Positions 28,794-34,177 are shown, numbered from the stretch's first letter. The stretch: 64,000 nucleotides of DNA from an uncultured Syntrophus sp. (GCA_964571695.1 CAZNDG010000008.1:15492-79491), one strand, 5' to 3'. Numbers and translations: made by a program. Notes: generated from the letters alone by a model not told the origin.

Positions 28794-30413
28794 TTATTCA
28801 ATACCACGGCGCCGATCGGAATAGTCGAGGGCCGCGGCGATAAAGTCCTTGAATAGAGGATGGGGATGAGTCGGCCGCGACTTGAATTCCGGATGGAACT
28901 GGCAGCCCAGAAACCACGGGTGATTGGGGAGTTCCACAATTTCCGCCAGCCGCCCGTCCGGGGAGGCGCCGGTGATCCACAGGCCCCCGGCAACCATTAT
29001 TTCCTTGTAGGCGGCATTGAATTCATAACGATGGCGGTGTCGTTCCTCGATGTCTTCCCGGTCGTAGGCGGCAAAGGCGAGGGAGGATTCCAAAAGCCGG
29101 CAGGGATAGGCGCCCAGGCGCATGGTGGCCCCTTTTTCCTTGATTTGCTTCTGCTCCGGGAGGAGATCGATGACGGGGTTGGGGGTGTGCGGATCGAATT
29201 CCGAGCTGTTGGCCCGTTCCAGACCGCATACATGGCGGGCGTACTCCACCACCGCCATCTGCATCCCCAGGCAGATGCCGAAGTAGGGGATATCCCGGGT
29301 GCGGGCGTAATGGGCCGCCCGGATCATCCCCTCGATGCCCCGGTCTCCGAAACCGCCGGGGACGAGAATCCCGTCGGCGCCGTCAAGCTGATGGGCAAGG
29401 CCGTCCTTTTCGATCTTTTCCGAATCGACGAATTTCAGGTTTACCCGGCAGTCGTTGGCGATGCCGCCGTGAATTAGGGCCTCGTTCAGGCTCTTGTACG
29501 AATCGGTGAGGTTGACGTATTTGCCCACGATGGCGATGGAAGCCTCCCGGGCGGGATGCATCATCCGGGCGACGACCTCTTCCCATGCCTCCAGGTGCGG
29601 ACGTCCCGTCCAGATGTTGAGAAGATCGACGATCTTTTCATCCAGCCCCTCGCGGTGATAGATCAGGGGCACCTCGTAGATGCAGCTCACATCCCGGGCG
29701 GCGAAGACGTCCGCGACGTTGACGTTGCAGAACAGGGCGATCTTGGCCTTGATGTCCTCGGAGAGCAGGTTTTCCGTCCGGCAGAGGAGGATGTCCGGTT
29801 GGATGCCGATCTCCCGCAGGGCCTTGACGCTGTGCTGCGTCGGCTTGGTCTTCACTTCCCCCGCCGTCTTGATAAAGGGGACCCAGGTCAAGTGGATGAA
29901 AACCGCATTCTGTTTGCCCACCTCCAGGCGGAACTGCCGGACCGCCTCCAGGAAGGGCAGGCTTTCGATGTCTCCCACGGTGCCCCCGATTTCCACGATG
30001 GCCACGTCGAAGTCCTTCGCACTTTCCCGGATAAAACCCTTAATCTCGTTGGTTATATGGGGGATTACCTGGACGGTCTTGCCCAGGTAGTCGCCCCGCC
30101 GCTCCTTTGCGATGACGGAAAAATAGACCTGTCCCGTGGTGAGGTTGTTGCTCTTCTTCATCCGTGTGGCCGTGAAGCGCTCGTAGTGACCGAGGTCCAG
30201 GTCCGTTTCCGCCCCGTCGTCGGTTACGAAGACCTCGCCGTGCTGGAAAGGGCTCATGGTTCCCGGATCCACATTGATATAGGGGTCCAGTTTCTGGTTC
30301 GTGACCCGCAGGCCCCGGCTCTCCAGAAGGGCGGCAATGGAGGCGGCGGCCAGGCCCTTGCCCAGGGAGGAAAGGACGCCACCGGTTACGAAGATGAATT
30401 TGGTTTCTTTCAT
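28794..30413 (-). CDS. pyrG: CTP synthase
   Basis: [17 protein letters not shown]-terminus, GFGDRG, GICLGMQ (GATase Cys), HRHRYE. ATGA overlap with the upstream 1255-aa gene. Confidence 0.95.
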
Positions 30414-33400
30414 GACGGTTCCTCAACCTTCTTTTTGATCAGATCGGCGATGTATTCCACCGGTTCTCCCAGCAGCGCCCCCATGGACAAGGCATCCAGG
30501 CAGGCGTCCGACCAGGGGAGATTGTACTCGTTGATCAAATTGCGGATGTCGTTATAACGGTAGCCCAGGACCTCCTTTTTCTCCGCGGCGGTCATGTCCC
30601 GCCGGTAGGCGATGTGGAGGAGCAAGAGCTTTTCCACCTGGAAACTGTTGCCCAGCAGTGGGACGATGACGATCATCGCCCCGTCCGCCTTGCCGAAGCC
30701 GGCATATATGTCGCCCATGCTGACGATGGTCCGCTTCGTTCCCATGAGTTTTTTCGATCCCGCCACCCGGGAAGACATCCGGGCGGCCGTGCCCTCCCGC
30801 CGCAGTATCTCGATCAGGGTGTCTTCCGCCGGATGGCCTTCCGTATCGAGGTTGGCGATGCCATAGAGGGTATAGCCGGAGATTGATGCCAGGGCCGGCT
30901 GTAGGGCCTTGAGGGCCATGATGTTCTTCCCCGTCAGGGATCTGGCCGGGAAGCCGAGTTCCCGGAGGAGCTGGAAGATCGGACCGGACAGCACCTCCTC
31001 CGCCCGGCTGGTGCCCACCGTCACGGTCTTGGCCTGATGACGGATGGCGTCGATGGGCCGGGAAAGCTCGTCGATGGCATGGCCTAAAGAGACGTCGAGG
31101 AGATCGAGGGGGGAGGTGAAGTCCTCCTCCCCTTTGAAATCGAGCCAGAAATCTTCCAGGGGGAGTTTGCCCACCGCATATTTCAACAGGAGGACGATAT
31201 TGGCTATCGTCCGGACATTAACCTGGGAAAAGGCGCCTTGTAACAGCCGCTCCTGGAAAGCGGTGGCGAACTCGCTGATCATCCGCCGGAACTGGCGGTC
31301 GAAAAGACGGTCGTACAGGGAATAGGATCGTTTGCCCTGCTCGATCATGGCCTGATGCATCCGGCCACGGAACTCCCGGAGATAATCCGCCTCCGCATCG
31401 ATGCTCCGGGCGGCATAGTAGCCCCAGAGATGGCCGGCGACGGTGTTGAGGATCACCGGCAGGGGCTGCGGCGCCCGGGGGACGGCAATCACCGCCTCGG
31501 CCAACTCGTCGAACCTTTCCTCCCCCTCGTCGGCGAACACGACGATGCCGGCTTTGTGGGCCTTGAAGATGGCCACGTCCTTGACTATGTCCCCGATCAC
31601 GGCGGTGGGGCTTCCGGCGGCGCAGACGAGGATCAGCGGTTCGGCGGACAGATCGATGTGTTTTTTGTTTTCCACGATGTCCGATGAGATCGTCTTGTAA
31701 CACAGCTCGCTGAGCTTGATCCGTATTTCATCCGCCGCCGCCTTGTTGGGGCCGCTGCCCACGACGGCCCAGTATTTCTTCCTTCCCGTCAACGTCTCGG
31801 CGGCCCGGCGGATCTGGTCCCGCCTCTCCATTACCCGGCCCATCATTTCCGGCGCCCGGGCGATTATTTCCATCTCTCCGGCGATGTCCTCGTCGGACAT
31901 CGTTTTAAGGATCTGGGCAAGACACAGCGCCAGGACGTGTCCGGCGACGATCTGGGAATAGAAGGCCTTGGTGGAGGCAACGGACATCTCGATGTCCCGT
32001 CCGTCGGAGGTGTAGAAGACGCCGTGGGACCTGGCGGTGATGTCTGATTGCCGCCGGTTGACGATGGCGATGATCCGCGCCCCCCGTTCCGCCGCCATCG
32101 CGACGGCCCGGTTGGTGTCCGTGGTGGTTCCCGATTGGGTGATGGGGATGACCAGGGTGTCGGCGAGCCGTTCCGCCAGATCGAAGCCGCTCAATTCCGA
32201 GGCGACGCGGGCCGAAATCTCGATGCCGCTTTTGGCGAGATACCGGGAACAGGCCCCGGCGACCGCCTCGCCGGCCACCGCGGCGGTGCCGTGGCCTATG
32301 ACGATGATCCGTTTGAGGGCGCCGGCCGCGAGGGACTGCCGGACGGTGGGCGGCACGATATCGGGGCCGAGATTGAAGCGCACCGCCCGGCGGCCATCCC
32401 CTTCCTCCCGGAGTTCGTATTTTCCCCGCAAGGTTTTTCTTACGGAATCGCCGGCCTCGTTTATCTCTTTGAGGAAAAAGTGGGGATGATCTCCCCGGTC
32501 GATGTCCCTCGTCGTGATCTCTGCCCGCCGGACCAGGGCGGGGGTGATCGCCAGGGGCGTTCCGCCGTAGGTACAGGCCCGTATTCCCTCCGTCCCGCCG
32601 GAATCGCCGGCCCCGAGGGTGAAGATCTGTCCCGTTTCTTCCCCGTCCATCTTGAGGAAATAAGGCGTGCCCTCCACCAGCCCGTAGAGTTCCGAGGAGA
32701 AGAGGTAGCGATCCCCAGCGAGCCCCACATAGATGGACTGGCCGCTTCCCCGCAGGGCCAGAAACGCCTTTCCCGGTTCCACGTTGGTGACCATGGCAAT
32801 GGCGTGAGAGCCCTCGAAACCGTTTACCGCGCGACGGAATGCCTCGGCGGCGTCGCATCCGGATTTCAGGTGCCTTTCGATCTCCAGGGGGATAACTTTG
32901 GTGTCCGTGGTGATCTCCGGGGCAATGAACTCACCGCCGGCCTCCAGGGCGTCGCGGAGCGGGCGGTAGTTGTCGATGTCGCCGTTGAGGGCGACGCTCA
33001 CGGACCAGTTGCCACGGCCGTAGGCGGGATAATGCTTTTCAGCTCCACCCGCCGATCCGTCCCGGCGGGAGAAATTATTCACGGGATGGCAGTTTTCCTC
33101 CGTTATGGATCCGACGGATGCCCAGCGGGTGTGGGCCAGGGAAACCTCCCCGGCGGTGTTCAGGGAGGCCAGAAGCTGGAGGATTCGGTCCCGGGAGATG
33201 ATATTGCGCAATTCCCGGACGTTTCTGCCCAGGGCGCCGATGACGGCGGCGGTCTTGTAAACGAATGACAGAGAGACGGCGGCGGTGCATAATCCCGGCT
33301 CGTCCGGGGCGGGAGCAGGGCTCTCCTTCCTTTCCGGCGGCTCCGGTTCCCGGCGGGAGCAGCGAATCGTACCATTGATGAAGTCGCCGGCGCCGGACCG

Positions 33401-34177
33401 GGCCTGGAAGTCATCATAAAGCCCCTGCTCCTTGAGCTTTTCGACCGCCGCCAACCAACTTTCCGGATCGGCGATCGTCAGGTCGATCTGGATTCCCGCG
33501 GAATCTCTCCCCCGCACTTCCAGGCGGTCCAGGGCGTTGAGCAGGTAGTTGAGCTGAAGGTATTTTTTCCAGGCCGGCGGCGTCGGGGAGGCCTCCGGGC
33601 CGCCGGCAAGTTTCTCGATCCGGCCGATGTTCCTTAGGATATCCTTTTCCAGGGACCAGAAGATGTCTTTCAAAAATGACAGGCGGCTGTTGAGGATCTC
33701 GATCTCCGCGGTGGTGAAACGGAGGGCGTTTTCCTCCAGGAGCTTCTCCTCCGTCTCGGCAAAACGCCGCATGGCTTCGGCTGCGCCCGCCGCTTTTCCG
33801 GCCTGGTCCGGCGCCGAGAGCAGTTCCAGGAAAGGTTCGCTATCCTTCCGGGAAAGCACTATCCTGTCCAGCTCCGCCAGGCATTCCTCCCCCCCCAGAT
33901 ACTCCGGCGCCGTGGCCTTCCCGGCCAGCAGGGACGGTAGCCCCTTTTCCCGGACCTTCCGAAAATTCTCCGTCAGGGAGGCGGCGAGATCCACATCGAC
34001 TTGTTCTCGCGGCCCTTTATTGATCGCGACGATGCCCGCAAGCCCGCAGGGAAGGGTGGTATTTAAAACGGGGAAGATGATCAAGGATCGGGGGGGTAGT
34101 TCAGCCGGAGCGCGACCGATGTAAACGCGCCAGTTCCACATCCAGGAGAAGGTTCCGGCATAAGGCTTTAAGGGCAT
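30410..34177 (-). CDS. giant GlmS-like protein: class-II (Ntn) glutamine amidotransferase, two SIS domains, extra N-terminal insert and C-terminal domain
   Basis: GATase-II motifs ([37 protein letters not shown]). SIS motifs ([24 protein letters not shown]). A GlmS C-tail-like [10 protein letters not shown] is followed by about 230 more aa. 1255 aa versus about 610 for GlmS. Confidence 0.75.

Follow-up and report, generated by a model that had tools for sequence, protein, structure and literature searches.

A double-length GlmS as the probable glucosamine-6-phosphate synthase of an uncultured Syntrophus species and its relatives

A stretch of 64,000 nucleotides from an uncultured Syntrophus sp. 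(GCA_964571695.1 CAZNDG010000008.1:15492-79491), referred to here as the window, contains an open reading frame (ORF) for a GlmS-like protein of 1255 amino acids (aa). This protein appears to be the organism's glucosamine-6-phosphate (GlcN6P) synthase, as a double-length version that has taken the place of the canonical enzyme in the order Syntrophales and in several other lineages. The probability of this reading is put at roughly 0.7. GlmS makes glucosamine-6-phosphate for cell-wall sugars. It is essential, heavily studied, and a target for antibiotics, and to our knowledge its architecture is regarded as nearly universal. Full-text literature searches turned up neither a long GlmS nor a GlmS with a propeptide. 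The long GlmS is a widespread and uncharacterised form of a known enzyme.

An earlier note, made from the sequence of the window, had described the ORF, its amidotransferase motifs, and a length about twice that of GlmS. The ORF and all of the motifs were found where the note had placed them, and the lengths compare as 1255 and 609 aa (the latter in Escherichia coli). The parts of the gene are listed below, with positions counted from the first letter of the window.

30410..34177, minus strand: long-form glmS ORF (P0001), 1255 aa.
34049..34177, minus strand: N-terminal leader, residues 1-43, a putative propeptide; a conserved leader spanning 43 alignment columns.
34046..34048, minus strand: codon tgc of Cys44, the N-terminal nucleophile (Ntn) equivalent to E. 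coli Cys1 by alignment and invariant in 97 sequences.
32498..34048, minus strand: class II (Ntn) glutaminase domain, residues 44-560, assigned by Pfam GATase_6/7, residue mapping, and family invariance.
33548..34018, minus strand: helical insert 1, residues ~54-210, between strand beta1 and helix alpha1 of the glutaminase domain (alignment, AlphaFold2).
33224..33457, minus strand: insert 2, residues ~241-318, with a Pro-rich low-confidence stretch (alignment, AlphaFold2).
31403..32497, minus strand: isomerase (two-SIS) module, residues 561-925, assigned by Pfam SIS 622-751, mapping, and Foldseek.
31058..31402, minus strand: helical insert 3, residues 926-1040, which separates the last SIS helix from the lid motif (alignment, AlphaFold2).
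31004..31057, minus strand: internalised C-tail/lid motif [20 protein letters not shown], residues 1041-1058, in which K1050 corresponds to E. coli K603.
30413..31003, minus strand: alpha/beta domain at the C-terminus, residues 1059-1255, seen in this family only and weakly PAS/GAF-like in fold (AlphaFold2, Foldseek).
30410..30413, minus strand: ATGA overlap between the TGA stop of the long glmS and the ATG of pyrG, read from the sequence.

Pfam identifies GATase_6/7 (341-500) and SIS (622-751) in the 1255-aa protein. Among relatives of solved structure, E. coli GlmS matches it best (E 8.6e-23), aligning over residues 339-931. The motifs are PCGLAGIV (43-50), RGRDSAGI (222-229), HTRWASVG (349-356), NGDIDNY (398-404), TDTKVI (424-429), and [10 protein letters not shown] (1049-1058). 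The catalytic sites were mapped by adding E. coli GlmS to an alignment of 97 family sequences. The corresponding residues are given with E. coli first.

Glutaminase site: C1 and C44; R26, G27, D29 and R222, G223, D225; R73, W74 and R351, W352; T76 and S354; H77 and V355; H86 and H364; N98, G99 and N398, G399; D123 and D425.
Isomerase site: S347, Q348, S349, T352 and T680, Q681, S682, T685; S401, K403 and S735, K737; E481, K485, E488 and E817, K821, E824; H504 and H840; K603 and K1050.

All of the mapped glutaminase and isomerase residues are invariant in the 97 sequences, and they are identical or conservative with respect to E. coli. Structure prediction, which the earlier note had suggested, gave the fold of GlmS and of its eukaryotic relative GFAT. 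The AlphaFold2 model of residues 44-1243 has a predicted local distance difference test score (pLDDT) of 84.3 and a predicted template modelling score (pTM) of 0.72. When the whole model was compared through Foldseek, only GlmS and GFAT were returned, with human GFAT-1 and E. coli GlmS as the top matches (E ~4e-28). Isolated isomerase-domain structures match at template modelling (TM) scores of 0.81-0.87. Two SIS domains had been proposed for this protein. Pfam calls only one of them, but the alignment to E. coli over residues 561-925 and the Foldseek matches support two. By sequence and predicted structure, the 1255-aa protein is a diverged GlmS, and the proposal of a GlmS-like protein with extra parts agrees with Pfam, with the E. 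coli relative, and with the structural comparison. From the catalytic residues we infer GlcN6P synthase activity (EC 2.6.1.16) for the long form.

The catalytic cysteine is residue 44, and the codons at this point read ctt ccc tgc. As had been observed earlier, no ATG, GTG, or TTG stands directly before the cysteine; the only upstream in-frame codons of this kind are those of M1, M13, and L32. The leader has the family consensus L..W.IY.G.DP..VP..S.ILFPL....L. immediately before the Cys. Nearly all orthologs from Syntrophales and Desulfobacterales share a leader that ends in ..S.I.FP[LV]....L. before the CG, and across 80 genome loci nearly all of them have their start codon 42-49 codons before the Cys. 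Three leader positions stand out by their conservation: G at -23 (100%), F at -9 (96%), and P at -8 (100%). At position -1 the family has P, C, F, Y, A, N, S, or H, and because of this variation there is no hidden conserved start beside the Cys. An internal or non-canonical start next to Cys44 is ruled out by the ctt ccc codons and by the variable residue -1.

Most distant members of the family begin with MCG.., which is the canonical Ntn arrangement. In a phylogenetic tree built without the leader columns, the leader-bearing proteins fall in a single strongly supported clade, and Met-Cys forms are found on all deeper branches. A Met-Cys subclade (P0041, P0046, P0077, and P0092) is nested inside the leader clade, beside the leader-bearing P0039. 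On the contig of P0046, stop codons lie just 5' of ATG-TGC. Independently, L093 and L096, which are from Desulfobacterales genomes, have stops just 5' of their Met-Cys start. L007 also has a secondary loss of the leader, with a Met-Cys restart and stops just upstream. As read from the tree and these sequences, the leader was gained once, in Desulfobacterota, and was lost at least twice, with each loss restoring exactly Met-Cys. Taken with the invariant glutamine site, this exact restoration speaks for a requirement for a free N-terminal Cys, and hence for removal of the leader. The leader is probably a propeptide whose removal exposes Cys44, judging from sequence comparison and by analogy with other amidotransferases. 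Between propeptide removal and a non-catalytic domain, the two options that the earlier note had left side by side, removal is favoured by the invariant glutamine site and the Met-Cys relatives. The conserved G, F, and P suggest that the leader has a specific role before it is removed, for example in folding, latency, or docking.

Two other explanations for the leader region were rejected. A lipoprotein-type signal peptide ending at the Cys does not fit, since the hydrophobic stretch is short and contains Pro and there is no lipobox (L is at -2, not -3). It is also countered by the relatives in which the same Cys is the Met-Cys nucleophile. Residues that might co-vary with loss of the leader were sought as well, by setting the leaderless subclade against leader-bearing relatives; the 16 candidate columns are common to P0039, its nearest leader-bearing relative, and are hence lineage noise. 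A separate observation concerns a PurF-like amidotransferase in the same genome (L002, G000:C5:34082-34753, minus strand). It has an open frame 5' of its catalytic Cys, reading ..GRPREE before CGVFAV, with no Met within 64 residues before the Cys. It resembles the short B. subtilis PurF propeptide, and by eye it has no obvious likeness to the GlmS leader.

The leader could also stay in place. The glutaminase would then be inactive or a scaffold, with GlcN6P made from free ammonia at the isomerase site, or the leader would be a permanent structural or regulatory element. Use of ammonia would suit ammonium-rich anaerobic habitats. The lack of a start codon adjoining the Cys is in keeping with retention, and the conservation of G, F, and P exceeds what is expected of a throw-away peptide. 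However, the residues for glutamine binding and the oxyanion (R351, N398, G399, D425, and W352) are invariant in the leader-bearing members, and every leaderless relative and every independent loss starts exactly at Met-Cys, which is the mark left by selection for a Cys at the N-terminus. In addition, propeptides of 11 to ~42 aa are textbook knowledge for PurF and GltB. Retention of the leader is considered unlikely.

The reading of the long form as the GlcN6P synthase of the organism can be followed through its distribution. More than 120 full-length homologs of 1218-1290 aa were found with 55-92% identity, and one that is 92% identical has the same length. Their sources are Syntrophales, Syntrophus, and Deltaproteobacteria, and they are labelled either 'SIS domain-containing protein' or 'glucosamine--fructose-6-phosphate aminotransferase'. 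The earlier note had asked how widely the long form occurs. A scan of species genomes with the pattern HQAKTVTV gave at least 594 loci, single-contig genomes included, and the long form has a continuous frame of 1130-1350 aa across these genomes. The best 80 loci belong to Syntrophus aciditrophicus, Smithella, Syntrophaceae, Desulfomonilia, Desulfobacterales, Desulfatibacillaceae, and related groups. Among more remote members the labels are Planctomycetota and Candidatus Xenobia.

It had also been asked whether the genome contains a canonical glmS. In the organism's own genome, which is 98.6% complete, none was found above the TIGR01135 cut-off, and the 1255-aa ORF is the only full-length GlmS-like gene. 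The order was sampled with 101 genomes from 24 families and 52 genera. Canonical glmS was present in none of these, and the long form was present in 87, with one match each. Most of the frames in the order are ~1200-1440 aa; a few are shorter, being cut at contig ends. In the phylum, canonical glmS was absent from all 17 long-form genomes and present in all nine genomes that have no long form (790-860 bits). It was likewise absent from 11 further long-form genomes, two of which have the Met-Cys start. Altogether, canonical glmS is absent from 115 long-form genomes. In a wider sample of the phylum, the C-terminal region was found in 31 of 301 genomes. As the sole homolog, and with its pathway context, the long form fills the GlmS role in the genome. 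A bypass through NagB was considered as a general source of GlcN6P and rejected, since only two of the 17 long-form genomes of the phylum outside the order have the NagB-like gene and 15 lack it.

A paralog of GlmS with another job would read differently. It could be an amidotransferase for another ketose phosphate, or a GlmS scaffold turned into a sensor or regulator, with GlcN6P coming from elsewhere. Scores below the curated GlmS cut-offs, a size half again larger than any characterised GlmS or GFAT, and a nagB-like gene in the same cluster would be in line with such a protein. The strict mutual exclusion with canonical glmS, seen in the 115 long-form genomes and the nine controls, speaks against it, as does the lack of the NagB-like gene in most long-form genomes outside the order. 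The residues for fructose-6-phosphate binding, ring opening, Schiff-base formation, and isomerisation are all retained, and glmM and the gene for a GlmU-like acetyltransferase are conserved neighbours. A paralog with another function is thus judged quite improbable. An artefact, whether a mis-assembly, a gene fusion, or a canonical protein of ~610 aa from an internal start, which the earlier note had held open, has a negligible chance, given the continuous frame at 594 or more loci, the 92%-identical homolog of equal length, the lack of a start at Cys44 with its variable residue -1, and the position of K1050 beyond residue 1000 and hence outside any 610-aa product.

The long GlmS differs from the E. 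coli enzyme by several extra modules. An insert of about 160 aa between the Cys and RGRDSAG had been noted earlier, and insert 1 was measured at ~153-155 aa, with 178 residues from Cys44 to R222 compared with 25 in E. coli. It is predicted to be all-helical with pLDDT ~85-94 (AlphaFold2; helices 21-176 in model numbering). In addition to what had been described earlier, there are insertions at 241-318 (~75 aa) and 926-1040 (~115 aa). By alignment, inserts 1, 2, and 3 are without counterpart in E. coli GlmS. Insert 2 falls below pLDDT 50 at model residues 240-254, a Pro-rich stretch that is predicted to be disordered, and insert 3 is confidently helical in the AlphaFold2 model. A further ~25 extra aa lie at 366-392 relative to E. 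coli GlmS.

The lid motif AKTVTVG is internal in the long form. The earlier note had placed about 230 additional residues after the C-tail-like motif; the extra C-terminal region is present, but its length is 197 residues. The lid stays invariant even among distant relatives. Column conservation is 0.99 at the lid, the highest in the protein, 0.74-0.82 in the catalytic cores, 0.70 in the C-terminal domain, 0.68 in insert 3, 0.51 in insert 1, and 0.46 in the leader. The C-terminal domain is thus conserved nearly as well as the catalytic cores. AlphaFold2 confidence is low exactly at the lid (pLDDT <50 at residues 1049-1061), which is consistent with a mobile lid in the model.

Modelled alone (residues 1056-1255), the C-terminal domain reached pLDDT 91.9 and pTM 0.87 in AlphaFold2. 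Its predicted topology is helix-helix, two long strands, helices, three strands, and helices. Foldseek returned only LOV/PAS, GAF, and Cache sensor domains for it, and these matches are weak (E 9.9e-4 to ~3e-2, TM 0.25-0.44). Pfam gave no match at E <= 10 for residues 1-341 and 925-1255, and a sequence search of the PDB with a profile of the C-terminal region gave none. When the C-terminal 331 residues were searched against 1.84 billion representative proteins, 400 matches were obtained. All of the full-length matches are proteins of 1073-1277 aa that match at their C-terminus, and the rest look like fragments. Because of this, the C-terminal domain is, by sequence, private to the long-GlmS family. 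Several metagenomic ORFs of ~340 aa (P0130, P0151, and P0177) start with MVGHLWGY.., and their sequence is limited to the last SIS helix, insert 3, the lid, and the C-terminal domain. They could reflect gene calls that were cut short, or long-glmS genes that are truly split.

Several observations weigh against the assignment of the long form as the displacing GlmS with a propeptide and a regulatory domain. The protein falls below the cut-offs of the NCBIfam GlmS models (NF001484, 249.9 against 381 bits; TIGR01135, 223.8 against 418 bits). Three E. coli residues are changed, T76 to Ser, H77 to Val, and S303 to Ala. Fourteen of the 101 genomes of the order have no GlmS-like match at E <= 1e-40, and most of these are 92-100% complete; they may reflect assembly gaps or true absences. 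Conserved G, F, and P positions are unusual in a disposable propeptide, and a retained structural role is possible. Lastly, with a best E of 9.9e-4, the PAS/GAF likeness is weak, and a regulatory role for the domain is conjecture.

A mechanism can be proposed for the long form as a GlcN6P synthase. The primary product would be a proenzyme, and removal of the leader, probably autocatalytic as in other Ntn enzymes, would free the alpha-amino group of Cys44. As the N-terminal nucleophile, Cys44 would then hydrolyse glutamine with R351, N398-G399, and D425. The ammonia would travel past the W352 gate to the two-SIS isomerase site, where fructose-6-phosphate would be bound by T680, Q681, S682, T685, S735, and K737. 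H840 would open the ring, K1050 would form the Schiff base, and E824 would carry out the isomerisation. The lid AKTVTVG, which is not the end of the chain, would be tethered between helical insert 3 and the PAS/GAF-like C-terminal domain. The tethered lid and the 155-aa helical insert of the glutaminase domain would most likely control lid closure and ammonia channelling at the level of the protein, through allostery or assembly. The long glmS would be co-expressed with a GlmU-acetyltransferase-like beta-helix protein, pyrG, and glmM as a cluster for envelope precursors.

A more far-reaching proposal, and a tentative one that is doubtful as a whole, is that the long form is a self-regulating GlmS zymogen. 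The leader would silence the glutaminase until it is removed autocatalytically, possibly after assembly. The C-terminal domain would be a sensor that binds a metabolite of the pathway, such as UDP-N-acetylglucosamine (UDP-GlcNAc), GlcN6P, or a nucleotide, and gates the lid and the ammonia channel. Such gating is proposed because the domain is tethered directly to the Lys-bearing lid. It would replace RNA-based control. Other bacteria control GlmS by RNA, through the glmS ribozyme or GlmY/GlmZ. A glmS ribozyme or other RNA element was looked for, and there was no Rfam match in the 64-kb window.

The genes that surround the long glmS are listed here.

28794-30413, minus strand: pyrG, downstream of the long glmS.
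27363-28718, minus strand: glmM, downstream of pyrG.
26154-27209, minus strand: NagB-like deaminase gene, after glmM; its best NCBIfam match is nagB, below the cut-off.
34203..35450, minus strand: gene for a 415-aa left-handed beta-helix (LbH) protein, upstream of the long glmS; no other gene of the genome matches the acetyltransferase half of GlmU better.
35470-36883, minus strand: MoaC, a 175-aa membrane protein, and a 125-aa Fis-type helix-turn-helix (HTH) protein; a conserved block upstream of LbH and glmS.

In most of 80 loci, glmS has the genes for LbH, glmM, nagB-like, and pyrG beside it on its own strand, and this synteny too is in line with the long form standing in for canonical GlmS. 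The overlap of the glmS stop with the pyrG start as ATGA had been pointed out earlier, and both the overlap and the adjacency to pyrG, which is conserved, are borne out. The NagB-like gene is syntenic with the long glmS in many Syntrophales loci and in some Desulfobacterales loci. MoaC, the 175-aa membrane protein, and the Fis-type HTH gene are upstream of the long glmS in most of the 80 loci, and this block is conserved across Syntrophales. The membrane protein has a weak STM3941-family match, and its gene contains a strong sigma-70-like match (11/12) at 36014-35986 on the minus strand.

The sole PDB match of the 415-aa beta-helix protein is GlmU 7k47 (E 1.9e-4). The protein bears a helical C-terminal extension of ~190 aa without a Pfam match. 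The uridyltransferase half of GlmU was found as a separate 260-aa ORF on another contig (G000:C40:18441-19148; 268 bits). From these matches, GlmU appears to be split in the Syntrophus genome into a uridyltransferase-only ORF and the beta-helix gene upstream of the long glmS.

The double-length form appears to be used, with no canonical copy alongside, by the order Syntrophales (Syntrophus, Smithella), by several lineages of Desulfobacterota, and by members of Planctomycetota and other phyla. Because the cut-offs of the curated hidden Markov models (HMMs) miss the long form, automated metabolic reconstructions will conclude in error that these syntrophs lack GlcN6P synthesis. If the leader proves to be a propeptide, this would be the first GlmS zymogen known to us. 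Should the C-terminal domain be a ligand sensor attached to the lid, entry into amino-sugar and cell-wall synthesis would be controlled in a new way.

Canonical GlmS (E. coli, 609 aa; PDB 1jxa, 2j6h, 4amv; TIGR01135) has in common with the long form an Ntn glutaminase that is followed by a two-SIS isomerase. The catalytic residues correspond, the lid motif AK[ST]VTV is shared, and in both cases the gene is the sole copy in the genome. In contrast, the long form is twice the length, with a 43-aa leader before the nucleophile, glutaminase insertions of ~155 and ~75 aa, and a helical insertion of ~115 aa before the lid. In the canonical enzyme the lid with the Schiff-base Lys is at the end of the chain, whereas in the long form it is internal and 197 residues follow. 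Canonical GlmS starts with Met-Cys, compared with Cys44 in the long form; the deep relatives and the lineages that have lost the leader also start with Met-Cys.

The eukaryotic enzymes GFAT-1 and GFAT-2 are another point of comparison, and human GFAT-1 (PDB 6r4e) matches the whole model better than any other structure does (E 4e-28, TMt ~0.65). GFAT is a GlmS that has been enlarged by regulatory insertions and is under feedback control at the protein level. In GFAT a loop of ~70 aa is inserted at a different place in the glutaminase domain, and the leader, the internalised lid, and the extra C-terminal domain are absent. The extra modules of GFAT and the long form share no sequence similarity.

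The C-terminal domain can be compared with PAS, LOV, GAF, and Cache sensors. Its topology of strand-strand-helices-three strands with flanking helices is compatible with theirs, although the matches are weak and there is no match by sequence or Pfam. The leader has its closest parallel in the propeptide Ntn amidotransferases, PurF (B. subtilis, 11 aa) and GltB, the large subunit of glutamate synthase (~36-42 aa). These possess the same glutaminase fold, with the catalytic Cys after a removable peptide, and by this analogy the length of the long-form leader is like that of GltB.

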